A stretch of DNA of 32,000 nt from the NCBI RefSeq assembly GCF_003044035.1, contig NZ_NVQC01000020.1, positions 30,001-62,000 of the forward strand, read 5' to 3'. The notes below the pieces were generated by a model, which did no database searches, was not told the origin of the DNA, and saw only the letters and a program-made list of their open reading frames with translations. Shown piece by piece: positions 1,680-31,214 of the stretch; positions within the stretch are counted from its first letter, which is position 1; each line of letters starts with the position of its first letter. The stretch is from Candidatus Methylomirabilis limnetica (GTDB lineage: Bacteria; Methylomirabilota; Methylomirabilia; Methylomirabilales; Methylomirabilaceae). The translations under genes and the position numbers were made by a program.

Positions 1680-2692
1680 CTAATCTCGGCCCCTCTATTG
1701 GAGGCCTTTGCTAAGAAGACGATCGCTTCAATTTTCCCTTGCATAGCCTGCATGAGACGATGCTTCAGGTGATCGGCTTGGTCCTGATCCATAGTCAGCC
1801 CATAGACCGCCGGTCCCCAGGAACTCTGCCCTACCCCTAACGCCCCAGCCCTTCGCATCGCCCTGGCCAGTTCCGCCCCCTGCGTGGTGGCAAAGGTTCC
1901 GCCCTGGACGGATCTGAACCAGTTTCCGACAATGCGCTGAATCCTGGTAAGCGCCTCACCGAATACAACGGGGTCGCGCTCGAGCACCGCCGGGAGCATC
2001 TGCATGAGCAGGATGCGGCTGAGCCGTCCCGCGGCGGTGGCAGGACGTAGGGCAAGCCGGCCAAACGCATCGACCTCTGCAACTCCGGCAAGCCCACGGT
2101 CGACATGGGGAATTGCCACGACAAAGGTCCACTCCTCTGGAAAGGGGTAGCGGACGATCGTGGGCGGAACGAGATTCCGGGTTCGTGTTTCGGTTTGCCT
2201 TAACCCACTCGAAACTCGAAACTCGAAACTCGAAACTGTTTCGCCTGCGGTGTTCATTCGCCGTCCGGCATCCACGACGAAACCGCCCTGCTCGAAGGCG
2301 GCGATCCCAATCCCCGACCGAGCCCCTCTGTCCATTACGGCTGCCAACTCCCGAACACTGGCGTCGATGGAGAAGAGACGAGCCAGCGCTGAAGCAACGC
2401 TGAGCGCAAGCTGCGTCCCGGAGCCCAAACCTGCATGGGCAGGGATTATTGCCTTGACGGAGATGTGAACCCCTTGCTGGAGATTGTAGTGGCGGAGAAA
2501 ACGGCGTGCCAACGTGAGGACTCGACCCCGCTCTCGCCCTACAGCCGAGAGGCGATCCGCCGGTGACGCCTCGAGAACGACCGAGGGCTCGCCGATCGCC
2601 AGCCCGATGCTCCCAAACATCCGACCCAATGAGCCGTCCAGGTCGATGAAGCCGAAGTGAAGTCTGGCAGGGGCCTTGACCGTGACGCCCAT
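1676..2692 (-). CDS. mptG: beta-ribofuranosylaminobenzene 5'-phosphate (beta-RFAP) synthase, H4MPT biosynthesis (GHMP-kinase fold); carries an in-frame repeat insertion
   Basis: Track ORF of 338 aa: MGVTVKAPARLHFGFIDLDGSLGRMFGSIGLAI...PAHAGLGSGTQLAL...GIGIAAFEQGGFVVDAG, the typical beta-RFAP synthase signature. The ATG overlaps the upstream gene's stop (TAATG). Confidence 0.8.
   Translation of the reverse strand: MGVTVKAPARLHFGFIDLDGSLGRMFGSIGLAIGEPSVVLEASPADRLSAVGRERGRVLTLARRFLRHYNLQQGVHISVKAIIPAHAGLGSGTQLALSVASALARLFSIDASVRELAAVMDRGARSGIGIAAFEQGGFVVDAGRRMNTAGETVSSFEFRVSSGLRQTETRTRNLVPPTIVRYPFPEEWTFVVAIPHVDRGLAGVAEVDAFGRLALRPATAAGRLSRILLMQMLPAVLERDPVVFGEALTRIQRIVGNWFRSVQGGTFATTQGAELARAMRRAGALGVGQSSWGPAVYGLTMDQDQADHLKHRLMQAMQGKIEAIVFLAKASNRGAEIS
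2166..2243 (-). repeat. Heptamer-armed palindromic element, copy E1 (in frame inside mptG)
   Basis: Minus strand reads CAGTTTCG AGTTTCG AGTTTCG AGTTTCG AGT-GGGTTAAGG-CAAACCGAAACACGAACCCGGAATCTCG. It encodes ...VSSFEFRVSSGLRQTETRTRNLV.... By hand alignment the arms are about 18/26 complementary. Confidence 0.75.
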
Positions 2693-5784: not shown

Positions 5785-5848
5785 GTAGGGGCGCAATTCA
5801 TTGCGCCCTCCGGGGTAAGAGGGCATGATGAATCACGCCCCTACGATC
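5785..5848 (+). repeat. REP-like hairpin unit, solo copy upstream of the RAYT-like gene
   Basis: GTAGGGGCGCAATTCATTGCGCCCT-CCGGGGTAAGA-GGGCATGATGAATCACGCCCCTACGATC. The inner 9-bp palindrome is GGGCGCAAT/ATTGCGCCC. The outer pair is GTAGGGGCG/CGCCCCTAC. Near-identical blocks lie inside the CDS at 6139-6225. Confidence 0.7.
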
Positions 5849-6138
5849 CTTAATCCATCGTTTTAGAGGGGCATTGCATGGCCTTCAATCCGGACGTTCA
5901 TCATCGCCGTTCGATCCGATTGAAGGACTACGATTATGCCCAACATGGTGCGTACTTCATCACCATCTGCACACGGAACCGAGAACGTCTATTGGGGTCC
6001 GTACAGGATGGGCAAATAGTCTTAAATGATGTTGGAAATATTGTCGAATCGGTATGGCATGGGCTACCCAATCGCTTTCCATCCGTTGGATTGGATGCGT
6101 ATGTCATCATGCCCAATCATGTCCATGGCATCATCACC

Positions 6139-6263
6139 GTAGGGGCGCAATTGATTGCGCCCTGCCCGGTCGGTCGCAACGATAAGGCCGGTCAAGAGGG
6201 CATGATGAATCACGCCCCTACGATCGTGGGCAACCCGGCGGGCATGATGAATCACGCCCCTAC
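6139..6263 (+). repeat. REP-like hairpin unit embedded in frame in the transposase CDS, with its 3' half-site tandemly duplicated
   Basis: GTAGGGGCGCAATTGATTGCGCCCT...GGGCATGATGAATCACGCCCCTACGATC runs 6139-6225. The 24-nt GGGCATGATGAATCACGCCCCTAC at 6198-6221 recurs exactly at 6240-6263. The region encodes VGAQLIAP...GMMNHAPTIVGNPAGMMNHAPT. Confidence 0.7.
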
Positions 6264-6471
6264 ATTGGGCAATATTGTTCGCACATTCAAGGCTGCATCA
6301 ACCAATGTGATTCGGAAAAGTCGAGCTCCCGCCTTTGCCCGGCAACGCAACTACCACGAGTACATCATCCGGGATGAGCGATCGCTGAACGGTATTCGTC
6401 GGTACATCCAGGTCAATCCGCTGCTTTGGTTATATGACAGAGAAAATCCTCAAGCAGTATGCGTACCCAAC

Positions 6472-6565
6472 AAAGAGGTCAACCGGGTACTGGCGAAGCA
6501 CTACAACTTCACGAACGAGGACCTGGATTTCATCATTATACGATGTCAAGTACCGGTTGACATAA
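6472..6565 (+). pseudogene. Frameshifted C-terminal remnant of a DNA methyltransferase or restriction-modification-type gene, read through by the transposase ORF
   Basis: The in-frame reading is KEVNRVLAKHYNFTNEDLDFII. Skipping one base (6538), which equals a 2-nt deletion, gives YDVKYRLT followed by TAA at 6563-6565. The restored LAKHYxFTxEDLDFII(N)YDVKYR matches my recollection of the HYGFTxEELDFIINYDIKYRMG tail of large N6-adenine methyltransferases. This was not checked by any search. Confidence 0.45.
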
Positions 6566-6585
6566 CAGATGGGTTCAGTAGGCTC
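6557..6585 (+). promoter_or_regulatory. Promoter-like bipartite motif, copy B (TTGACAT-N9-GTTCAGTAGGCTC), upstream of bioB
   Basis: TTGACA (6557-6562), a 16-nt spacer, then TAGGCT (6579-6584), about 33 nt before the bioB ATG. By hand alignment 23 of 30 positions match copy A, and both flanking blocks are perfect. Confidence 0.4.
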
Positions 6586-6617
6586 GATTTTGTTCAAGAT
6601 GCTGATCTTTCTTATGA

Positions 6618-7685
6618 ATGAGGCGTGAGGGGGAAGATGTGAAAGGCGTGCAATCGGGCGGTGTGACGGAGCGGGTGCGGCAGATCGGCGAACGGGTGCT
6701 TGCCGGAGATACGGTGACGTTCGAGGAGGCCGTCGAGCTCTTCGAGCGCTCCGATTACGACGTTCATGAACTGTTCCACGTGGCCAATCGTCTCCGGCTT
6801 AATCAGTTCGGGAACCGGATCCATCTCTGCGGCATTATCAACGCCAAGAGCGGCCTCTGTCTGGAGGACTGTAGCTTTTGTAGCCAGTCCGCTCACCACG
6901 CTACCCAGATCCCGAGGTATGGTGTAGTATCCCCAGACGAGATGGTCCAAGCTGCCAGAAAGGTCAGGGAGCACGGCGCCTCCGCGCTTGGGGTCGTCAC
7001 CGCGGATCGCGGCTACACCGCCGCGTCAGCGGATTTTCGTCAGCTTGTCGAGGGGATCCAGGCTATTGCGCAGGACGGCCTGGTAGAGGGTCACGCCTCC
7101 CTCGGAATCATGGGTGACGAGGAGTTTCGACAGCTCAAGGTGGCAGGTCTCACCACGTTCAATCACAACTTGGAGACCGGCCGCTCCTTCTTTCCGAAGG
7201 TCTGTACGACCCACACCTATGACGAGCGTGTGAGCACCGTCAAGGCCGCCAAGGCTGCCGGGATCAGGGTCTGTAGCGGCGGGGTCATCGGGATGGGGGA
7301 GAAGCCGGTGCATCGCGCCGAGCTCGCCTTCGCCCTCAAGGAGCTGGACGTAGACGAGGTCCCCCTGAACTTCCTGATCTCTGTGGAAGGGACCCGATTG
7401 GAGAAGGCCACCCCGCTCTCACCGCTCGAAATGCTGAAGGTGATCGCACTCTTCCGCTGGATCCTCCCGACCAAGAACATCTTTATCTGCGCCGGCAGAG
7501 CGCATCTGGGCGAACTGCAATCGATGATCTTTTTCGCCGGCGCGAGCGGAATGATGGTCGGCGACTTCCTCACGACCAAGAACCGAAGCGTGAGCGACGA
7601 TCTCAAGATGCTTCATGGTTTGGGGCTTGAGTTCGGCGAATCCTTGCTCGCCCTGGAACGCCAGGCCGCGACTGCCGCCATCTAA
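6618..7685 (+). CDS. bioB: Biotin synthase (radical SAM)
   Basis: Track ORF of 355 aa with the CxxxCxxC cluster CLEDCSFCSQS and otherwise typical BioB sequence. The start could instead be the in-frame GTG at 6639, just after GAGGGGGAAG. Confidence 0.85.
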   Translation: MRREGEDVKGVQSGGVTERVRQIGERVLAGDTVTFEEAVELFERSDYDVHELFHVANRLRLNQFGNRIHLCGIINAKSGLCLEDCSFCSQSAHHATQIPRYGVVSPDEMVQAARKVREHGASALGVVTADRGYTAASADFRQLVEGIQAIAQDGLVEGHASLGIMGDEEFRQLKVAGLTTFNHNLETGRSFFPKVCTTHTYDERVSTVKAAKAAGIRVCSGGVIGMGEKPVHRAELAFALKELDVDEVPLNFLISVEGTRLEKATPLSPLEMLKVIALFRWILPTKNIFICAGRAHLGELQSMIFFAGASGMMVGDFLTTKNRSVSDDLKMLHGLGLEFGESLLALERQAATAAI

Positions 7686-7716: not shown

Positions 7717-7812
7717 ACCCCCTCACCTTTGTCCTCTCCACCCGGTGAGGGGAGAGGAGTTTTTCTTGTTGCCCCTCGCCCCTTTGGGGGAGAGGGTGCG
7801 GGTGAGGGGGTT
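7717..7812. repeat. C/G-rich composite palindromic element in the bioB-bioA spacer (terminator-like)
   Basis: CCCCCTCACC (7717-7726) is complementary to GGTGAGGGG (7744-7752) and to GGTGAGGGGG (7801-7810). CCTCTCC (7733-7739) is complementary to GGAGAGG (7751-7757 and 7788-7794). T-runs follow both G-rich halves. Confidence 0.55.
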
Positions 7813-9214: not shown

Positions 9215-9267
9215 CACCCCCTCCCCAACCCTCCCCCCTCGGAGGGGGAGGGGACAGGTGGGGGGGA
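9215..9267. repeat. C/G-rich palindromic element in the bioA-bioD spacer, same type as 7717-7812
   Basis: CCCCTCCCC (9218-9226) is complementary to GGGGAGGGG (9245-9253), with inner CTCC/GGAG. The block order is the same as in the bioB-bioA element (CCCCCTCnCC...CCTCnCC...GGnGAGGGGAG). Confidence 0.5.
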
Positions 9268-13624: not shown

Positions 13625-14336
13625 GTTTATCAGAGCAGATGGCGTCTACAAGTCGTTTCAGATCGACGGTGGACCAGTTGAGGTTCTGAAGGGTGTTGAC
13701 CTCAGTATTGAAAAGGGAGAATTCATTGCAATCGTGGGACCTTCAGGAGCCGGCAAGAGCACGCTCCTGCATCTGCTAGGCGCCCTGGATCGCCCAACCG
13801 AAGGTGAGATTTTCTGTGAGAATGTCAGTCTTGGGCAGATGGACAATGGGCAACTGGCCGACTTTCGCAACCGGACTGTCGGCTTTATCTTTCAGTTCCA
13901 CCATCTACTTCCAGAGTTCACCGCACTGGAGAATGTCATGATGCCGCTCTTAGTGGCGCGCCGGAAGCGGTCACAGGCACGGGAGATCGCCGCGTCTCTG
14001 CTGAGGGATGTGGGGCTCGAGTCCAGACTCTTGCATCGTCCCTCTGAACTTTCCGGCGGAGAGCAGCAACGAGTCGCTATCGCCAGGGCCCTTGGCGCCG
14101 GACCCAAGATCATCCTCGCAGACGAACCGACCGGAAACCTGGATACCAAGACAGGAGATGCGACCTTTGAGCTGCTCCATTGGCTGAATCGAGAACGTGG
14201 CCTCACCTTTGTCATGGTGACGCACAATGAGAAGTTAGCCCATCGATCGGATCGGATCGTGACAATATTGGATGGTAGAATTGTAGAGGAGCCCGTCCGT
14301 CAAGCCCCCGCCAACCATTCGATGATCTCAGGGTAA
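13617..14336 (+). CDS. lolD: Lipoprotein-releasing ABC transporter ATP-binding protein
   Basis: Walker A GPSGAGKST, signature LSGGEQQRVAIARAL, Walker B ILADEPTGNLD. I prefer the ATG at 13617 (MSEFIRADGVYKSF) over the TTG track start at 13593. Confidence 0.85.
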   Translation: MSEFIRADGVYKSFQIDGGPVEVLKGVDLSIEKGEFIAIVGPSGAGKSTLLHLLGALDRPTEGEIFCENVSLGQMDNGQLADFRNRTVGFIFQFHHLLPEFTALENVMMPLLVARRKRSQAREIAASLLRDVGLESRLLHRPSELSGGEQQRVAIARALGAGPKIILADEPTGNLDTKTGDATFELLHWLNRERGLTFVMVTHNEKLAHRSDRIVTILDGRIVEEPVRQAPANHSMISG

Positions 14337-19869: not shown

Positions 19870-20955
19870 GTGGCGATGCAACTGAGGGAGCTGGCTGAAA
19901 AGCTGAGGTGCCGGCTGGTAGGCAACGATGATGTCGATGTCCGGCGTCTCGCTCCACTGCACGAGGCGGGTGAGGGAGACTTGGTCCTTGTGGTGAACGC
20001 ACGCGACCTACCGGCACTGGAGGCGACCAGGGCCTCTGCTGTGATTGTACGTGAGGGGAGTCCGCCCTGCTCTAAGCCGGCGTTGGTGACGAACGATCCG
20101 TATCTGGCTTTTGTCCAAGCCCTCCGTCTTTTCTACACCCCGGACCGTCCAACGCCTGGCGTCCATCCATCCAGCATCGTGGCTGAGGGCGCGCGTCTTG
20201 CAGAGGATGTTGCGATCGGGCCGCTCTCGGTCGTCGAGACAGATGTGACGATTGGCCCGAGAAGCATCGTGGGCGCCCAGGTCTACATCGGCAGGGGCAG
20301 CCACATTGGCGCCGACTGTTGGTTTTACCCGCAGGTCATGGTCCGGGAAGGCGTCGAGATCGGCGATCGTGTGATCATTCATAGCGGGGCTGTGATAGGT
20401 AGCGATGGCTTCGGGTATCTGAAGGACGGACAGGGGGTCCGCATCAAGATCCCGCAGGTGGGGCGGGTGATTCTCGAGGATGACGTTGAGATCGGTGCCA
20501 ACGTTACAATCGACCGAGCGACAATGGGGGCGACGCGGATCAAGCGTGGGACCAAGATCGACAATCTGGTCCAGATCGCACACAATGTTGTCGTAGGAGC
20601 GGATACGGTAATTGTGGCCCTGAGCGGCATCTCCGGCAGTACGAAGATCGGAGATCGGGTGACGCTGGCCGGCCAGGTCGGGGTCGTCGATCATGTTGAG
20701 ATCGGCGACGATGTGACCGTGGGAGCGCAGGCTGGAGTTAGTAAGAACCTTCCGCCTGGGGGTGTCTTCCTGGGTTCTCCCGCCGTACCGCATCTCGCAT
20801 TCAAGCGCAGCGTCGCCGCGGTGAATCGGCTCCCCCAAATCCTGAGTACCCTTAAGCGTATTGAGGCTCGCTTGGCATCGTTAGAGGGCGCCGCTTCGGA
20901 ACGGAGGGAGGGGGCGCAGCCTTCTCAGTCGGCGTCTGATGGGGGACCCCAGTGA
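19870..20955 (+). CDS. lpxD: UDP-3-O-acylglucosamine N-acyltransferase
   Basis: Track ORF of 361 aa with an LpxD N-domain followed by left-handed beta-helix hexapeptide repeats. The start is either GTG 19870 or ATG 19876. Confidence 0.9.
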
Positions 20956-21434
20956 TCGATAGTCGACAAATTCAGGATATGCTTCCCCACCGGTATCCCT
21001 TTCTCCTGGTCGATAGGATTCTTGAGATCGAGCCGGGAAAGAGGGTGGTAGGGCTCAAGAATGTGACCATTAACGAGGCATTCTTTCAGGGTCACTTTCC
21101 AGGGCAGCCGATTATGCCGGGAGTACTGGTGATCGAGGCGATGGCGCAGGTCGGAGGGATCCTGTTGATGCGGACGCTGAACGTGAGCGCCGAAAAGAAG
21201 CTCCTGTATCTTGCCGGCATCGACCGGGCCAGATTTCGCAGGCCTGTGCTGCCCGGGGATCAGGTGAGATTAGAGGTCGAGTTAATCCAACTCAGGAGCC
21301 GCACCTGTCGAATGCGAGCTAGCGCCATGGTGGATGGCAAGCTGGCTGTGGAGGCTGAGTTGTCGTGCATTGTCGTTGACCGGGGATCCCCTAACCTTCC
21401 TCCAGGCGTTCCAGTGGCGATGGGGGAACAATGA
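20952..21434 (+). CDS. fabZ: 3-hydroxyacyl-ACP dehydratase
   Basis: Contains [13 protein letters not shown] and [23 protein letters not shown] overlap with lpxD. Confidence 0.9.
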
Positions 21435-22207
21435 TACAAATTCATCCGTCAGCGGTTGTTGCACCGGAGGCCAAGCTTGGACCGGACTGTAGCGTCGGCG
21501 CCTTTTCGGTCATCGGTCCTGATGTCACCGTGGGGTCCGGGACCGTCATCGGTTCGCATACCCTCATTGATGGGATTACAGAGATCGGAGAACGGTGCCA
21601 GATTTTCTCTCACGTAGTCCTTGGCGCCGTGCCCCAAATCTTTCAGGATCGAAGTGAGATGACCCGGCTGATAATAGGTGACGAGACAGTCATCCGGGAG
21701 TTCGCATCGGTCCATCGCGGATCCTCGAAAGGCAGGGGCGCTACGATACTAGGGCGCAGGAACTACATCATGGCCTATGCGCATATTGCACACGATTGCC
21801 TCTTACGTGATGACGTGGTAGTCGCCAGTCAAGCTGGACTGGCCGGCCACGTCGAGATCGAAGACCGAGCGGTTATCGGTGGGCAGGCAGGGATCCATCA
21901 GTTCGTCCGTATCGGACAATACGCCATGGTTGGCGCCTGCTCGGCAGTTTCGCAGGACATCCCACCCTTCGTCAAGGCGCAGGGGGACCGGGCCAAGTGC
22001 TTCGGTTTGAATACGGTTGGTCTTCGCCGCCATGGTATTGGTCAGGAGGCGATCCTTCACCTCAAGCAAGCCTATCGGTTACTCTTCCTTTCCAACCTTA
22101 ATACGTCTCAGGCTCTGGAGAGGATTGCATCGGAGGTGAGCTCCTGTCCAGAGATCGATCACCTGATTCACTTCATCAAGCTCTCGACGAGAGGGATCGC
22201 GCGCTAA
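21431..22207 (+). CDS. lpxA: Acyl-ACP--UDP-N-acetylglucosamine O-acyltransferase
   Basis: Track ORF of 258 aa: [10 protein letters not shown], hexapeptide repeats and the LpxA C-terminal helical domain. ATGA overlap with fabZ. Confidence 0.9.
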
Positions 22208-22213
22208 CGCGAT

Positions 22214-22334
22214 GTGTCGAGTTTCGAGTTCCGAGTTTCGTGTTGAAGAAGATCTTACGTGCAAGGGAACCTTCGACTCAGCACCTGGAACTGGAGAGCC
22301 AAACCCGAAACCCGAAACTCGCAACTCGAAACGG
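22214..22334 (+). repeat. Heptamer-armed palindromic element, copy E3 (longest, MITE-like), filling the lpxA-lpxI spacer
   Basis: Left arm CGAGTTTCGAGTTCCGAGTTTCGTGTTG; 54-nt centre; right arm CAAACCCGAAACCCGAAACTCGCAACTCGAAACGG. By hand alignment the arms match at 23/28 positions as an inverted repeat. Confidence 0.8.
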
Positions 22335-22342
22335 TAAAGTCG

Positions 22343-23143
22343 ATGGAATGCCTCGGGATCATAGCCGGCGGAGGGCCGCTTCCGGTCGTAGCGGCGCGGG
22401 AAGCGCGCATGCAGGGGTTCAAGGTCGTGGCGGTGGCCATCGAAGAGGCTGCCTCTGCCGATCTGGCCAATGAAGTAGATACGATCTGTTGGGTGGGAGC
22501 CGGACAGCTTGGCCGGTTGATCGCGGTGCTAAAGCAAGAGAAGGTGACGAATGCTGTGATGCTTGGGAAAGTCCCGCTCGACCGCCTCTTCTCGCGCGTA
22601 AAGACCGATCTGGATGGCTTGCTGCTCTATCTGAAGCTCAAAGACCGACGCGGCGATACGATCCTCGCGGGTGTAGGCGATGCGTTGAAACAGAAAGGGA
22701 TCACTCTGCATGATTGTCGGCGGTTCCTTTCTTCGATCGTATTGCGGAAGGGGATGCTGACGGCGCGGGCGCCAAGTTCCTTAGAGCAGCAAGATATCGA
22801 CTTTGGAAGAGAGCTTGCCAGAGCCATCGCGCAGTTGCGAATCGGCCAAACTGTCGTGGTCAAACGCCGAACTGTCCTGGCAGTGGAGGCGATCGAGGGA
22901 ACTGATGCCGCCATTCGCCGCGGCGGCAAACTTGGGAATGGGGGAGTGGTGGTCGTCAAGGTTGGGCGTCCCGACCAGGATATGCGCTTCGATCTTCCGG
23001 TCATCGGACCGGAGACCGTGGTAGCGCTCGAAGAGGCGGGCGCGACTGCGCTTGCCCTGGATGCCGATCAGACCTTGATTCTAGATCGGGAAAAGGTAGT
23101 GGCGACTGCCGACCGACTTGGGCTAGCGATGGTGGCAGATTAG
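22343..23143 (+). CDS. lpxI: UDP-2,3-diacylglucosamine pyrophosphatase LpxI (DUF1009)
   Basis: The ATG at 22343 gives MECLGIIAGGGPLPVVAAREA..., a typical LpxI N-terminus. It sits between lpxA and lpxB. The track start at 22259 merely translates the repeat element. Confidence 0.75.
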   Translation: MECLGIIAGGGPLPVVAAREARMQGFKVVAVAIEEAASADLANEVDTICWVGAGQLGRLIAVLKQEKVTNAVMLGKVPLDRLFSRVKTDLDGLLLYLKLKDRRGDTILAGVGDALKQKGITLHDCRRFLSSIVLRKGMLTARAPSSLEQQDIDFGRELARAIAQLRIGQTVVVKRRTVLAVEAIEGTDAAIRRGGKLGNGGVVVVKVGRPDQDMRFDLPVIGPETVVALEEAGATALALDADQTLILDREKVVATADRLGLAMVAD

Positions 23144-23153
23144 CAGCAGGACG

Positions 23154-23219
23154 GCCATCAGCCGTCAGCTATCCGCCAAGACCCAGAGCTGAATGCTGAC
23201 TGCTGATGGCTGATCGCTG
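23154..23219. repeat. Second heptamer-armed palindrome, (nnTCAGC)n ... (GCTGAnn)n
   Basis: GCCATCAGCCGTCAGC (23154-23169) and GCTGACTGCTGATGGC (23195-23210) match 15/16 as an inverted repeat. The right arm is heptamer-periodic: GCTGAAT GCTGACT GCTGATG GCTGATC GCTG. Confidence 0.65.
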
Positions 23220-23271
23220 CCTCTAAGAGCGAGTTCGCTCATGCCGATGCAATGGGAAGGAAGAATCCGGA

Positions 23272-24216
23272 ATGAAGAACGGGCATCCAATTCGAGTCGG
23301 TGTGGTGGGTGTTGGCTACGTGGGGCAGCACCACGCCAGAATCTATTCGGAGATGACGGGCGTTGAGCTGGTCGGGGTGGTCGATATCGACGAGACCCGC
23401 CTGCAGGAGTTGGGGACGCGGTACCGTATCCAACTGTGTCGCGATTACCGCGAGCTCCTGGGAAGGGTGGATGCCGTCAGTGTAGCGGTGCCGACCCTGG
23501 CGCACTACTCGATCACCAAGGAGTTCCTGGAGCGCGGGGTAGACGTCCTGGTGGAGAAACCGATCGCGCAGTCCCTCGCTCAGGCCGACGAACTGGTTGG
23601 GATTGCCAAGGCTGACGATCGAATCTTCCAGGTTGGGCATATCGAGCGATTCAATGGTGCGGTCAAGGCGCTCGAGAGCATTGTGAGGAGCCCTGGTTTC
23701 ATCGAATGCCACCGTCTTGGCCCTTTCGCCCACCGCAACACGGATGTTGATGTTGTTCTCGACCTGATGATCCATGATATTGACATCGTGCTGAACCTGA
23801 TCAAGTCGCCTGTCGTCGCAGTAACGGCCGTCGGTGTCCCGGTCATCTCCGATCAGGTGGATATCGCCAACGCACGGCTCCAGTTTGAGTCGGGGTGTGT
23901 CGCGAACCTGACCGCCAGCCGGGTGAGCGTCGAACGAGTCCGACGGGTGCGGATATTTCAGCGGGACACCTTCATCTCTCTTGACTATTCTCAGCAAGAG
24001 ATTGCTGTCTACCATCGCATCCCGGCGGCGGATTCAGATGCCGAAGCACCTCCCACGATCGTCAAGGAAGAGATTCCTATCGATAAGGCAGAGCCGCTTC
24101 GCGTCGAGCTCGAGAGCTTTATCGAGTGCGTCCGGACTAGAAAGAGACCGCTGGTCTCAGGCGAGGACGGCCGGGACGCCCTGAAGGTGGCCTCTCAGAT
24201 TATGGAGAAACTGTAG
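23272..24216 (+). CDS. Gfo/Idh/MocA-family NAD(P)-dependent oxidoreductase (possible GnnA-like UDP-GlcNAc 3-dehydrogenase)
   Basis: Track ORF of 314 aa with N-terminal Rossmann fold IRVGVVGVGYVGQHH and the EKP motif (VLVEKPIA). It is embedded between lpxI and lpxB. Confidence 0.75.
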   Translation: MKNGHPIRVGVVGVGYVGQHHARIYSEMTGVELVGVVDIDETRLQELGTRYRIQLCRDYRELLGRVDAVSVAVPTLAHYSITKEFLERGVDVLVEKPIAQSLAQADELVGIAKADDRIFQVGHIERFNGAVKALESIVRSPGFIECHRLGPFAHRNTDVDVVLDLMIHDIDIVLNLIKSPVVAVTAVGVPVISDQVDIANARLQFESGCVANLTASRVSVERVRRVRIFQRDTFISLDYSQQEIAVYHRIPAADSDAEAPPTIVKEEIPIDKAEPLRVELESFIECVRTRKRPLVSGEDGRDALKVASQIMEKL

Positions 24217-28513: not shown

Positions 28514-29493
28514 AGCCCAAGACCATGGGCGGTATTGCCGCCTATCTCGAATACCTCCTCGCGATGGGACTCGCGAAGGGATTGTTGTACCTGCCATCTT
28601 CAGTGGCCTACTCTGTAGGTGAGGGATTGGCTGGGCTGCTCTACCGCTTTGATCACAAGCATCGCCTTGTTGCTCATGAGAACCTGCATCGGGCCTTTCA
28701 TGGTGAGCTTTCCTCTATGGAGATTGATGAACTTACGCGCTTATGCTTTATCAATCTCGGCCGAACCGTTGTCGAGACCTGTCGGAGTCTCAAGATCGAT
28801 CGAGAGAACTTCCGGCAAGTTATCGGGGTCGAAGGGTATGAGCACATCCAGCAGGCCAAGCGCAGAGGGAAAGGAATCATCTACGTCACCGCGCACTTGG
28901 GTTCGTGGGAACTGCTGCCGCTTGCGGTAGGCCTTATGGGTGAGCCGTTGTCTGCTGTGACGCGCCCCCTGGATAATCCATACCTCGATAGGGCAATCAA
29001 CCGGTTGCGGACCGCCTGGGGAACGAGGGTATTAGCCAAGAAACAGGTGATGCCGGTGCTGGTGCGGGCGCTGCTTCGTGGGGAGAGCGTCGCGATCCTC
29101 ATGGATCAAAACACCACCTGGAAAGAGGGGGTCTTTGTCGATTTCTTTGGTATGCAGGCCTGCACGACCCTTGCGCCAGCTCTCCTGGCCCTCAGAACCG
29201 ACGCATCGGTTCTTCCTGCCGCCATCATACGGTGCGGGCGGGACCGGCACACTGTTCTTGTGGAGAAAGAGATCCCCTTGATCAGGACCGGGCGCCTGAA
29301 GGCAGACGTCATTGCCAACACCGCCTCTTTCACCAAGGCCATCGAAGCGTTCGTTCGGAGGGAGCCGGCCCAGTGGCTCTGGCTCCATCGCAGATGGAAA
29401 ACACAACCGCGTGCCACGTGCCAGGTTCCGAACCTGGAATCCGGAACCCGATACGTGGAATCTGGAACTGCGAGGCAGAACCCGACACAATGA
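28510..29493 (+). CDS. lpxL: Lipid A biosynthesis late (lauroyl/myristoyl-type) acyltransferase, LpxL/HtrB family; C-terminal tail encoded by a repeat element
   Basis: The ATG at 28510 (ATGA overlap with lpxK) gives MKPKTMGGIAAYLEY.... It has the HX4E motif TAHLGSWELL, then ...PAQWLWLHRRWK, followed by about 30 extra residues. Confidence 0.8.
   Translation: MKPKTMGGIAAYLEYLLAMGLAKGLLYLPSSVAYSVGEGLAGLLYRFDHKHRLVAHENLHRAFHGELSSMEIDELTRLCFINLGRTVVETCRSLKIDRENFRQVIGVEGYEHIQQAKRRGKGIIYVTAHLGSWELLPLAVGLMGEPLSAVTRPLDNPYLDRAINRLRTAWGTRVLAKKQVMPVLVRALLRGESVAILMDQNTTWKEGVFVDFFGMQACTTLAPALLALRTDASVLPAAIIRCGRDRHTVLVEKEIPLIRTGRLKADVIANTASFTKAIEAFVRREPAQWLWLHRRWKTQPRATCQVPNLESGTRYVESGTARQNPTQ
29411..29488 (+). 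repeat. Degenerate heptamer-periodic element, copy E5, at the lpxL / heptosyltransferase junction
   Basis: Period-7 string ...ACCTGGA ATCCGGA ACCCGAT ACGTGGA ATCTGGA ACTGCGA.... Inverted repeat GGTTCCG (29424-29430) / CGGAACC (29442-29448). Positions 29462-29488 match 22285-22311 of copy E3 at 20/27 positions, ungapped and aligned by hand. Confidence 0.55.
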
Positions 29494-31214
29494 GTGTGGC
29501 GACGCTTCGCATCAGGCGTACCTTCGAACCAGACCAGATTCGATCTATCCTGGTCGTAAGCCCTAATTGGTTGGGCGACGCGGTCCTCGCTCTGCCTGCG
29601 CTCGCCAACCTCCGCCGCTCCTTTCCTGAAGCAAGAATCTCACTTCTCGTGCGCCCGTGGCTTAGCCAGTTGTTTCGATCCTTACCGTTCATCGACGAGC
29701 TCGTTGAGTTGCCAAGCAGAGGTGAGCTGATGTGGGCGGCGACAGCACTACGGCAACGAGACTTTGAATTGGCCCTGCTCTTACCGAACAGCTTCCGAAC
29801 AGCTCTGATCGTCCGGCTGGCAGGAATTCCGCACCGGGTCGGGTATGTGGCCGATGGACGGGGCCCTCTTTTGACGGTTGGGGTGTGCCCCTCACCTTCG
29901 AGTTTCGAGTTTCGAGTTTCGAGTTACGCGTCACGAGATTCTTTGAACCCGAAACCCGAAATCCGAAACCCGAAACTTCATCATCAGGCAGACTCCTACC
30001 TTGGCCTGCTCCGATCGCTTAAGTGGGATGCGTGGTCGCGTCCGACAGCTTCTCTGCTTCCGCCGGGAAGCGACGCGGAAGCAGAGAAGCTGCTCACCGA
30101 CTTGGGTCTCCCCTCTCACACCATGTTAATTGGCATGACCCCCGGTGCTGCCTATGGGACGGCAAAGCGTTGGCCGACTGACCGGTTTGCCGCAGCAGCC
30201 GATCTTTTGATTGATCGCCTTGGAGCCACCGTCCTGTTATTCGGTTCACCGAGGGAAGCCTCGTTAACAAGCGCCATCCGCGAGCGGATGCGCGGAGCTG
30301 CTATCGACTTCGGTGGCCGGACGACTCTTCCCGAATTGTCCGGCCTGCTCAGTCGATGCGCGCTGCTCCTCACGAACGATACGGGGACGATGCATCTCGC
30401 CTCCGCGTTAGGGGTGCCGTGCGTCGCCCTGTTCGGCCCGACGGATCCTCTCCGAACAGGGCCTCTCGGCTCTGGACATCGGGTTCTTCACGATCCGCCG
30501 GCCTGCAGTCCGTGTCGCTACCGCGACTGCCCGATCGACCATCGATGCATGCAGGCGCTGGACGTGGAGAGGGTTGTGGCTGCCGTGGAGGCCCTTCTCA
30601 CACGATCAACCTCCACTACCGAGGAGAACGTCCGGATGCGGCCCGCGGTCTTTCTGGACCGGGACGGTACCATCAACGAGGAGATCGGGCCGATTCAACA
30701 CCCAGACTTGATGAGACCGATTCCCGGGGCGGCAGAAGCGTTGAAACGCCTTGGCGAGGAAGGGTATCTGCGGATCGTGGTCACCAATCAGGCGCGAGTG
30801 GCCCGAGGGGACGCAACGGAAGAGCTGGTTGAAGCGACCCATCGGCGACTCCTGCAGTTGCTCCGCGAGGCGGGAGGCGAGATGGATGCCTTCTACTACT
30901 GCCCTCATCATCCTCGGGAAGGGCTCTTCCCGTACAGACGGGCCTGCCTGTGTCGTAAGCCTGCCCCCGGGTTGATTCAGCAGGCGGCCTTTGAGCAGCA
31001 GGTAGACATGGAGCGATCGTACGTCGTTGGGGATAAGGTGAGCGATATGCTGCTGGCAGATCGGCTAGGCCTCCCCTCGGTGCTGGTACTGACCGGCTAT
31101 GGGCGCGAGTCGTTGGATCGCCTTCATGCGGCGGGAGGTCCAATGCCCGCTCATACGGCTAGAGATCTGCTGGGCGCCACCGAGTGGATTGTGCAACGGA
31201 GCGGCCGAGGATGA
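29490..31214 (+). CDS. Fusion protein: GT9 ADP-heptose:LPS heptosyltransferase (WaaF-like) plus D,D-heptose 1,7-bisphosphate phosphatase (GmhB)
   Basis: The ATG at 29490 (ATGA overlap with lpxL) gives MSVATLRIRR..IRSILVVSPNWLGDAVLALPAL (GT9 N-terminus)...NDTGTMHLASALGVP. From 30636 the sequence is MRPAVFLDRDGTINEE...VVTNQ...CPHHP...CLCRKP...VGDKVSDM, a GmhB HAD phosphatase with a Zn-Cys motif. Confidence 0.8.
   Translation: MSVATLRIRRTFEPDQIRSILVVSPNWLGDAVLALPALANLRRSFPEARISLLVRPWLSQLFRSLPFIDELVELPSRGELMWAATALRQRDFELALLLPNSFRTALIVRLAGIPHRVGYVADGRGPLLTVGVCPSPSSFEFRVSSYASRDSLNPKPEIRNPKLHHQADSYLGLLRSLKWDAWSRPTASLLPPGSDAEAEKLLTDLGLPSHTMLIGMTPGAAYGTAKRWPTDRFAAAADLLIDRLGATVLLFGSPREASLTSAIRERMRGAAIDFGGRTTLPELSGLLSRCALLLTNDTGTMHLASALGVPCVALFGPTDPLRTGPLGSGHRVLHDPPACSPCRYRDCPIDHRCMQALDVERVVAAVEALLTRSTSTTEENVRMRPAVFLDRDGTINEEIGPIQHPDLMRPIPGAAEALKRLGEEGYLRIVVTNQARVARGDATEELVEATHRRLLQLLREAGGEMDAFYYCPHHPREGLFPYRRACLCRKPAPGLIQQAAFEQQVDMERSYVVGDKVSDMLLADRLGLPSVLVLTGYGRESLDRLHAAGGPMPAHTARDLLGATEWIVQRSGRG
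29897..29978 (+). repeat. Heptamer-armed palindromic element, copy E4 (in frame inside the heptosyltransferase domain)
   Basis: TTCG AGTTTCG AGTTTCG AGTTTCG AGTTACG CGTCACG AGATTCT TTGAACC CGAAACC CGAAATC CGAAACC CGAAACT T. It encodes SSFEFRVSSYASRDSLNPKPEIRNPKL. Confidence 0.8.

Follow-up and report, generated by a model that had tools for sequence, protein, structure and literature searches.

What fills the spacer between lpxA and lpxI in Candidatus Methylomirabilis limnetica, and how did it come to be there? The question is raised by a 121-nt hairpin element at positions 22214-22334 of a 32,000-nt stretch of this genome (contig NZ_NVQC01000020.1, positions 30,001 to 62,000; hereafter the window). 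The arms of this element are runs of 7-nt repeats, and related elements lie elsewhere in the window, in part within coding sequence. The explanation preferred in this study, with a probability of roughly 55%, is that these elements are inverted heptanucleotide microsatellite hairpins resembling the cyanobacterial short tandemly repeated repetitive (STRR) sequences, and that they turn over by slippage and template switching. The arrays change far faster than their flanks, the two arms of a hairpin decay independently, one block was inserted without a duplication, and the reading frame was preserved. The elements are thus of a known kind, i.e., bacterial heptanucleotide repeats, in a fast-evolving form, and what is new is the variant found in the phylum NC10, which is arranged as inverted pairs and is carried in frame by conserved enzymes.

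The reference element and its host genes are as follows.

22214-22334, no strand assigned: reference hairpin element, filling the lpxA-lpxI spacer; outer sequence GTGTCGAGTTTCGAGTTCCGAGTTTCGTGTT...CCAAACCCGAAACCCGAAACTCGCAACTCGAAACGG
22217-22244: left arm of the reference element, AGTTTCG-type
about 22245-22298: centre of the reference element
22299-22332: right arm of the reference element, CGAAACY-type
21431-22207, plus strand: lpxA, upstream host gene (Pfam Hexapep and Acetyltransf_11)
22343-23143, plus strand: lpxI, downstream host gene (Pfam LpxI_N from residue 4 of the 266-aa form)

With the lpxA stop codon at 22205-22207 and the lpxI ATG at 22343, the spacer measures 135 nt, 121 of which belong to the element. 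A GTG at 22259, from which lpxI would read through the element, was considered as an alternative start and rejected in favour of this ATG, as LpxI_N begins at residue 4 of the 266-aa form and the orthologs are likewise called 266 aa. The inverted-repeat search found the best 28-nt arms at 22217-22244 and 22302-22329, complementary at 24/28 positions, while several registers shifted by 7 nt are complementary at 23/28; the centre spans about 54-57 nt. The preliminary description of this DNA, made from the sequence alone, is therefore borne out in its geometry (121 of 135 intergenic nucleotides, 28-nt arms of heptamer runs matching at 23/28, a 54-nt centre), the best register being even slightly better than it had stated.

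Further hairpins were found in the window.

29894-29981, plus strand: 88-nt block in the gene for the heptosyltransferase II-HAD fusion (29490-31214)
2166-2243, minus strand: copy within the gene for beta-RFAP synthase (1676-2692, likewise minus)
29411-29488, plus strand: degenerate copy encoding the C-terminal tail, i.e., the last ~30 residues, of an LpxL-like acyltransferase (open reading frame (ORF) end 29493)
23154-23210, no strand assigned: hairpin of a second flavour, with CATCAGC/CGTCAGC ... GCTGAYN heptamers, just 3' of the lpxI stop codon

The heptosyltransferase copy consists of a left arm (AGTTTCG)4 at 29897-29925 and a right arm (CGAAAYC)4 at 29946-29976, and is translated in frame as PSSFEFRVSSYASRDSLNPKPEIRNPKLH. 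The copy in the beta-RFAP synthase gene, with the in-frame reading VSSFEFRVSSGLRQTETRTRN, has one perfect sense-strand arm, (AGTTTCG)4 at 2207-2237, and a decayed partner at about 2166-2199. At 29411-29488 the left arm reads GTGCCAC GTGCCAG GTTCCGA (also described as GTGCCAS/GTTCCGA) and the right arm (YGGAAYC)n. Of the four related copies previously proposed, those at 2166-2243 and 29897-29978 are real, whereas 29411-29488 is only a degenerate relative and its membership is correspondingly weaker. The proposed relatedness of the loci otherwise held up, in that architecture and unit sequence are common to them and they align in heptamer register, as does 29411-29488. Of the four copies, two or three are read in frame. 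The three clear copies (22214-22334, 29894-29981, and 2166-2243) have mutually unrelated centres, and the two centre sequences searched had no other match in 281 fetched loci except the ortholog. A composite left arm, GTGCCAGGTKCCG, is seen at two unlinked loci.

The arrays are specific to a single period. Tandem Repeats Finder reported period-7 arrays at 2207-2237, 22217-22244, 22301-22332, 29897-29925, and 29946-29976, each a tandem run of 4.0-4.6 copies with 85-100% matches, i.e., of at least three units. The pattern CGAAACYCGAAAC, with up to 2 mismatches, gave 20 matches in the window against 1.45 expected, a number reached in 0 of 100 shuffles. When the window was matched to itself, five segments appeared at lag 7 and none at lags 5, 6, 8, or 9; likewise, 225 kb of NC10 DNA contained 19 period-7 arrays, compared to 0, 1, 0, 0, and 0 at periods 8, 9, 10, 11, and 12, respectively. 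The phenomenon is thus heptamer-specific, and the presence in the window of heptamer-array hairpins beyond chance expectation is confirmed.

The clearest record of how a copy arises is provided by the heptosyltransferase gene. A 24-residue insert is present only in the window protein and in one 95% identical protein (P0001), while 16 other NC10 homologs, including two that are 93-94% identical, have nothing at the insert site; these 16 are mostly 550 aa long, and the longer ones differ only by N-terminal extensions. In the DNA, L121 has CCCCTC + GAGCGGGACGGCGCTG + CATCAG at its empty site, and the filled site is CCCCTC + ACCTTCGAG...CTTCAT (88 nt) + CATCAG. Hence, 88 nt stand in place of 16 nt, a net gain of 72 nt by which the frame is kept. 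TCGAG stands at the left junction in both the filled and the empty state (microhomology). Comparison of the two states revealed no target-site duplication, and 16 nt of the target were lost. In an AlphaFold model (mean predicted local distance difference test score, pLDDT, of 70), the insert is predicted as coil with a pLDDT below 50, flanked in the N-terminal domain by a strand and a helix, which would fit a tolerated surface loop. Between the window and its 95% identical relative (L122), the CGAAATC unit sits at a different position.

In the beta-RFAP synthase gene, the loop in question lies between GGFxVDAG and RYPFP, and its length varies among NC10 lineages. It measures 60 nt in the basal lineages, 87 nt in three others, 111 nt in the window, and 126 nt in L129, so that every difference is a multiple of 3. 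The left arm is perfect and the right arm decayed in the window, and the reverse holds in L129. In other relatives, the loop reads GFGFRVSG, i.e., (GGTTTCG)n, with every linker base changed in concert from A to G. Array composition and length thus differ between close relatives in the manner of slippage-type turnover. Both this gene and the heptosyltransferase gene are cases of an in-frame palindrome in a conserved gene whose relatives lack it. Direct reading of the sequence explains why this is tolerated: the heptamer unit is free of stop codons in all frames on both strands, and three units make 21 nt, or 7 codons, so that the array cycles through the three frames and (AGTTTCG)n is always translated as SFEFRVS and (CGAAACC)n as RNPKPET. 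Where the net length is divisible by three, copies were shown to persist in frame, in linker or surface parts of the host proteins.

At orthologous sites in Methylomirabilis relatives, the position of the hairpins is often retained and the unit replaced. In L123 and L127 (M. oxyfera, FP565575), the lpxA-lpxI spacer holds a hairpin of a different heptamer, (GCGTRCA)n with an ...ACGC partner. The L124 ortholog (2667-2758) has the same outer boundaries as the window and carries (CGAAACC)3(CGGAACC)2, its left arm being lost or decayed; no hairpin is formed (folding z = +1.6 and 0.1). The site of the LpxL tail, which overlaps the heptosyltransferase start, is occupied by (CCGACAC)7 in M. oxyfera (L127, 9948-10000) and by (CCACGTG)3 in L121 (1612-1640). 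The CATCAGC/CGTCAGC hairpin 3' of lpxI is kept in L123 (3621-3660) and M. oxyfera (L127, 3719-3760), and in L124 (3560-3711) and L122 (60-186) its loop carries a REPIN-like insert, GTAGGGGC...GCCCCTAC. Several units therefore coexist in NC10 loci, namely, CGAAACY, GCTGAYN, GCGTRCA, CCGACAC, CCACGTG, and GCCTTCA. Arrays of (GCCTTCA)n were observed in L124 at 14222-14244, 20124-20146, and 20229-20252, in both orientations and about 6 kb apart. Copies beyond the window were found in the L122 ortholog, the L124 lpxA-lpxI ortholog, the L129 beta-RFAP synthase loop, and two loci of L083, a metagenome-assembled genome of Methylomirabilota. The elements are a class of heptamer hairpins with several units and fast turnover, found in spacers and in variable protein loops of Methylomirabilis genomes, and not one sequence family.

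Similar arrays occur far outside NC10. A scan for (CGAAACY)3 with one genome per species returned at least 120 loci, compared to about 4 expected by chance (own arithmetic, equal base frequencies). Among the matches listed were Acidobacteriota (many of them Pyrinomonadaceae), Planctomycetota, Bacteroidota, Verrucomicrobiota, Chloroflexota, Desulfobacterota, Proteobacteria, Cyanobacteria, and one member of Methylomirabilota. A (GTTTCGR)n-loop-(YCGAAAC)n hairpin, with the GTTTCG arm first, is found in at least 7 phyla. For the 127 arrays among the matches listed, at least 2 GTTTCG units lie within 150 nt upstream in 26 cases and downstream in 2 (binomial p ~3e-6, own arithmetic), and on viral contigs the GTTTCG arm comes first in 6 cases against 0. 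In-frame arrays are also seen elsewhere in inter-domain linkers, e.g., in a Ser/Thr kinase, HrpA, and GlmS. The controls limit what can be read from this spread: on viral contigs, the real unit accounted for 39 stretches and two permuted heptamers of the same composition for 21 and 15, making them only ~2-fold rarer, and the control CAGAACY also forms hairpins, (GGTTCTG)n...(CAGAACC)n, again with the GTT arm first. The cross-phylum matches were therefore dropped as evidence of one specific family, and their presence indicates a general propensity to form heptamer arrays, which is no proof of a single spreading family. It is a speculative and rather improbable extension that hairpins of the type 5'-(GTTNNNR)n-loop-(YNNNAAC)n-3', in which the GTT arm invariably comes first, make up a class of very small DNA shared by bacteria at large and by phages. 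Such a class would either spread by a common transposase-independent templated copying or mark where a replication or repair enzyme takes a universal step of 7 nt, and Methylomirabilis would be a recently active example, able to write itself into essential genes.

Several further observations were made in the same searches. Pure (CGAAACY) arrays of 11-14 units without an inverted partner occur in Desulfonema magnum (L061, 5020-5137), Enterovibrio (L020, 5321-5403), and Colwellia (L051, 6397-6479); that of Desulfonema lies in frame in HrpA, between Helicase_C and HA2. On one viral contig (L223, 3320-3456), the centre of a (GTTTCGG)n ... (CCGAAAC)n hairpin is itself a heptamer array, (TTTTTTA)n. 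A peptide search with the translated hairpin matched 411 protein clusters, almost only hypothetical ORFs shorter than 100 aa plus one eukaryote, the cryptophyte Baffinella frigidus, in which many predicted proteins (P0247, P0266, P0273, and others) match, suggesting a (CCCGAAA)-like satellite.

How, then, might such hairpins be formed and maintained? Once single-stranded, whether as DNA or as RNA, an inverted pair of arrays folds back into a long hairpin with imperfect pairing. Slipped-strand mispairing could account for the gain, loss, and homogenisation of units, intramolecular template switching (quasi-palindrome correction) could make or keep the arms complementary, and new copies might come from templated repair or recombination with another copy, with no need for a transposase. 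Polymerase slippage has been proposed for bacterial repeats of 5-11 nt, among which heptanucleotides are the commonest according to the summary of Mrazek 2007 given in PMC4679880. Template switching is directly supported by a neighbouring site: at 30046-30092, about 65 nt downstream of the insert and within the heptosyltransferase ORF, the window and L121 (2205-2251) carry a perfect 18-bp inverted repeat, CAGCTTCTCTGCTTCCGC, where L122, L123, and L124 have the quasi-palindrome CAGAGTGTCTGCTTCCGC. The difference is a cluster of 4-5 bases by which the left arm becomes the exact complement of the right arm (TECLL -> TASLL), and the distribution of the corrected palindrome departs from the strain tree. 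Judged from the sequences, this looks like a templated quasi-palindrome correction, which would mean that template switching is active in this lineage. Taken together, the concrete junction in the heptosyltransferase gene and the corrected quasi-palindrome beside it point to template switching rather than transposition. Any cellular effect would be a by-product: the stem-loop in the lpx mRNA (~-41 kcal/mol) could alter processing, stability, or translational coupling, and proteins would gain a disordered loop.

Some observations weigh against this mode of turnover. An 88-nt hairpin cannot arise de novo through slippage alone where no repeat was present before, and the copying step that would place it there is drawn from one junction. 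Neither slippage nor template switching accounts for the fixed polarity (26 vs 2 in genomes, 6 vs 0 on viral contigs); a mobile element or a structure under selection would naturally have it. The same lpx spacers keep hairpins in species whose proteins are ~75% identical, which could reflect function. Lastly, the copy counts are limited to the 32-kb window and the fetched loci.

A selected cis-acting structure is one alternative, either as a sense or antisense RNA stem-loop that stabilises, processes, or attenuates lpx transcripts, or as a heptamer array bound by a regulator. Besides the hairpins held in the lpxA-lpxI and lpxI 3' spacers of several Methylomirabilis species despite sequence change, it can draw on folding z-scores down to -3.8 to -6.5, on the location of hairpins in other phyla (15 of 26 border on the 3' end of an ORF that is 150 aa or longer, and 5 are flanked by convergent ORFs), and on the finding that recF and recO expression in Nostoc is affected by heptamer repeats (bioRxiv 10.1101/2022.06.06.494920). 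The antisense strand folds better than the sense strand in all four window copies (-48.7 vs -41.2, -40.8 vs -28.8, -30.8 vs -27.1, and -38.4 vs -28.5 kcal/mol), because A.C mismatches on the sense strand become G.U on the antisense strand. This substitution had been pointed out in the preliminary description and was borne out by folding both strands; its further claim that only an antisense RNA would fold is overstated, since three of the four sense strands also form more stable structures than shuffled sequence (z -2.0 to -4.5), the exception being the beta-RFAP synthase copy (2160-2245, z -1.7), and no consistent bias was found across phyla (of 15 hairpins from other phyla whose gene direction could be assigned, 8-9 fold better as antisense and 6 as sense). 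The common orientation of the four copies relative to host transcription, also noted earlier, was seen, but each array is internally homogenised and the number of independent events is therefore small. No basis was seen for a dedicated antisense RNA; copies with a weaker sense-strand structure may be better tolerated within operons. The L124 ortholog has lost its hairpin, the ORF copies at unrelated sites cannot all be regulatory, and the unit sequence is not conserved at orthologous sites, which makes a sequence-specific binder unlikely. Rfam at the gathering threshold gave only a tRNA match, and its E-value scan of 22000-23300 gave only sub-threshold miRNA-precursor matches to the lpxI 3' hairpin. 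No terminator-like site or T tract was found in 21900-23400, where GGTAAAGTCGATG follows the right arm. On this evidence, selection for a cis-acting structure is possible but unlikely.

The other alternative is a non-autonomous element resembling a miniature inverted-repeat transposable element (MITE) or a REPIN, i.e., of the repetitive extragenic palindromic (REP) type, inserted as a unit, with the heptamer arms serving as terminal inverted repeats for a transposase encoded elsewhere. Terminal inverted repeats are indeed present at 24/28, though as arrays and not as fixed termini. The recent block insertion in a gene whose 93-94% identical relatives lack it, the several copies in 32 kb, the constant arm polarity across phyla, the recurrence of the left arm GTGCCAGGTKCCG at two unlinked loci, and the presence of a REP-associated tyrosine transposase (RAYT) in the window all speak for such an element. 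The RAYT and its repeats are listed below.

5785-5844: GTAG-headed REP doublet, preceding the RAYT gene
5878-6621: RAYT gene (NCBIfam NF047646, E = 2.5e-14, 53 bits, in two pieces and below the cut-off of 80)
6138-6263: in-frame REP copies inside the RAYT gene (VGAQLIAP..., and GMMNHAPT twice)

This gene, for which no Pfam match was obtained, is the only transposase in the window, and the REP that flanks it is a different one: the heptamer hairpins lack its GTAG-type head and begin with GTGTCGAG or CCTTCGAG. The REPIN-like element sitting within the lpxI 3' heptamer hairpin in L124 and L122 likewise shows that the two repeat systems are distinct. REP sequences and REPINs (PMC3116915) are similar to the heptamer hairpins in being short imperfect palindromes in many copies, mostly at gene ends, but they have a conserved GTAG-type head and a fixed sequence of 20-40 nt, whereas the heptamer hairpins are headless, variable in length, and found inside ORFs, with two or three of the four window copies in frame and so not extragenic. 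No conserved internal sequence is shared among the copies, which also differ in how many units make up an arm; the insertion cost 16 nt of target and left no duplication. Given the control heptamers (only ~2-fold rarer, and hairpin-forming in the case of CAGAACY), the occurrence across phyla does not have to stem from a single spreading family. The MITE or REP architecture suggested in the preliminary description thus fails the duplication, core, and head tests, given that there is no defined sequence, that the centres are unrelated, and that other units stand at orthologous sites; a transposable element is held to be an unlikely source, if a conceivable one.

Lastly, chance low-complexity sequence or an assembly artefact, to which the low complexity of the arms and their similar complementarity in several 7-nt registers might point, is hardly credible and effectively refuted by the excess of CGAAACYCGAAAC matches (20 vs 1.45), the confinement of the periodicity to period 7, the presence of the heptosyltransferase insertion in the independent assembly L122, and reading frames that stay open through the copies.

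Inverted heptanucleotide hairpins that turn over by slippage and template switching, the explanation favoured here, bear on several matters. According to Pfam, the window contains a lipid A/lipopolysaccharide (LPS) core cluster comprising lpxA, lpxI, lpxB, kdtA, lpxK, the LpxL-like acyltransferase, and the heptosyltransferase-HAD fusion, together with methanopterin-type genes. The filled and empty sites show that heptamer hairpins can insert without a frameshift into conserved enzymes that make lipid A, LPS, and methanopterin, and this in a phylum without described repeat families. For annotation, such stop-free hairpins yield spurious short ORFs and make proteins appear falsely extended at the N- or C-terminus. 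Why the polarity is fixed across phyla is a small, testable puzzle concerning the origin of the repeats. Elsewhere in the window, G/C-rich inverted repeats lie at 7717-7811 (ACCCCCTCACC...GGTGAGGGGGT) and 9217-9264 (CCCCCTCCCC...GGGGGAGGGG) and may represent a further repeat family.

Two look-alikes can be set aside before the comparison with known systems. Integron attC sites are organised as RYYYAAC...GTTRRRY, a polarity opposite to that of the heptamer hairpins, and the termini of CRISPR repeats were rejected as there is no repeat-spacer array. A literature search by sequence string found no bacterial paper printing GTTTCGAGTTTCG or its variants, and a search for Methylomirabilis repeat elements found nothing. 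The preliminary description had taken the elements for an undescribed-looking family, which is too strong, as dispersed heptamer arrays, palindromic and intragenic ones among them, are known from Geobacter (PMC2700814) and, as PMC4679880 summarises, from bacteria generally.

Among the known systems, Rickettsia palindromic elements (RPEs) are similar in being palindromic, about 100 nt long, and both intergenic and tolerated in frame in conserved genes. As presented in the review PMC2229807, they are stem-loop palindromes of 105-146 bp in defined families with a conserved consensus (Ogata et al. 2000) and without tandem substructure, whereas only the heptamer unit is common to the NC10 elements and their centres are unrelated. 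The RPE likeness would thus be one of analogy and not of membership. Long simple sequence repeats with units of 5-11 nt, which PMC4679880 summarises from Mrazek et al. (2007), share the dominance of heptamers, a sporadic distribution across phyla, and slippage as the proposed origin, and the TAACTGA direct repeats (MacGregor 2015, PMC4679880) have occasional intragenic copies, as here. As far as PMC4679880 describes them, however, these are direct arrays, TAACTGA having only one indirect repeat, while the inverted pair is characteristic of the elements in NC10. In Geobacter metallireducens, 49 heptanucleotide copies are spread over both genic and intergenic sequence (Aklujkar et al. 2009, PMC2700814). 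The Geobacter elements comprise 4-5 tandem heptanucleotides at dozens of sites, with the GGGACCG family located within and between genes and the MTYCTGA family arranged as a palindrome, one palindromic family having five units; that paper reads them as RNA elements with a regulatory role or as sites to which a regulator binds (PMC2700814). They resemble the NC10 elements as tandem, palindromic, and intragenic heptamers, but their units differ, and the Geobacter paper was without an analysis of empty sites or of turnover at orthologous sites (PMC2700814).

The closest described class would be the cyanobacterial STRR sequences, and the earlier comparison with both STRRs and RPEs was apt, with two copies in frame in conserved enzymes and an empty site in close relatives. 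STRRs are dispersed tandem 7-nt units, several of which occur per genome in intergenic regions; they are variable among close strains yet structured. The cyanobacterial heptanucleotide sequences were reportedly described by Mazel et al. in 1990. The STRR units CCCCAGT, TTGGTCA, and CAACAGT were found in none of the period-7 arrays of the 225 kb of NC10 DNA, so that the elements would belong to the broad heptanucleotide class and not to the named STRR families. Tandem dispersed heptamers, several units, and strain-variable intergenic sites are shared with STRRs, whereas the elements described here belong to another phylum, NC10, have other units, form inverted pairs with fixed polarity, and also lie in frame in conserved enzymes.

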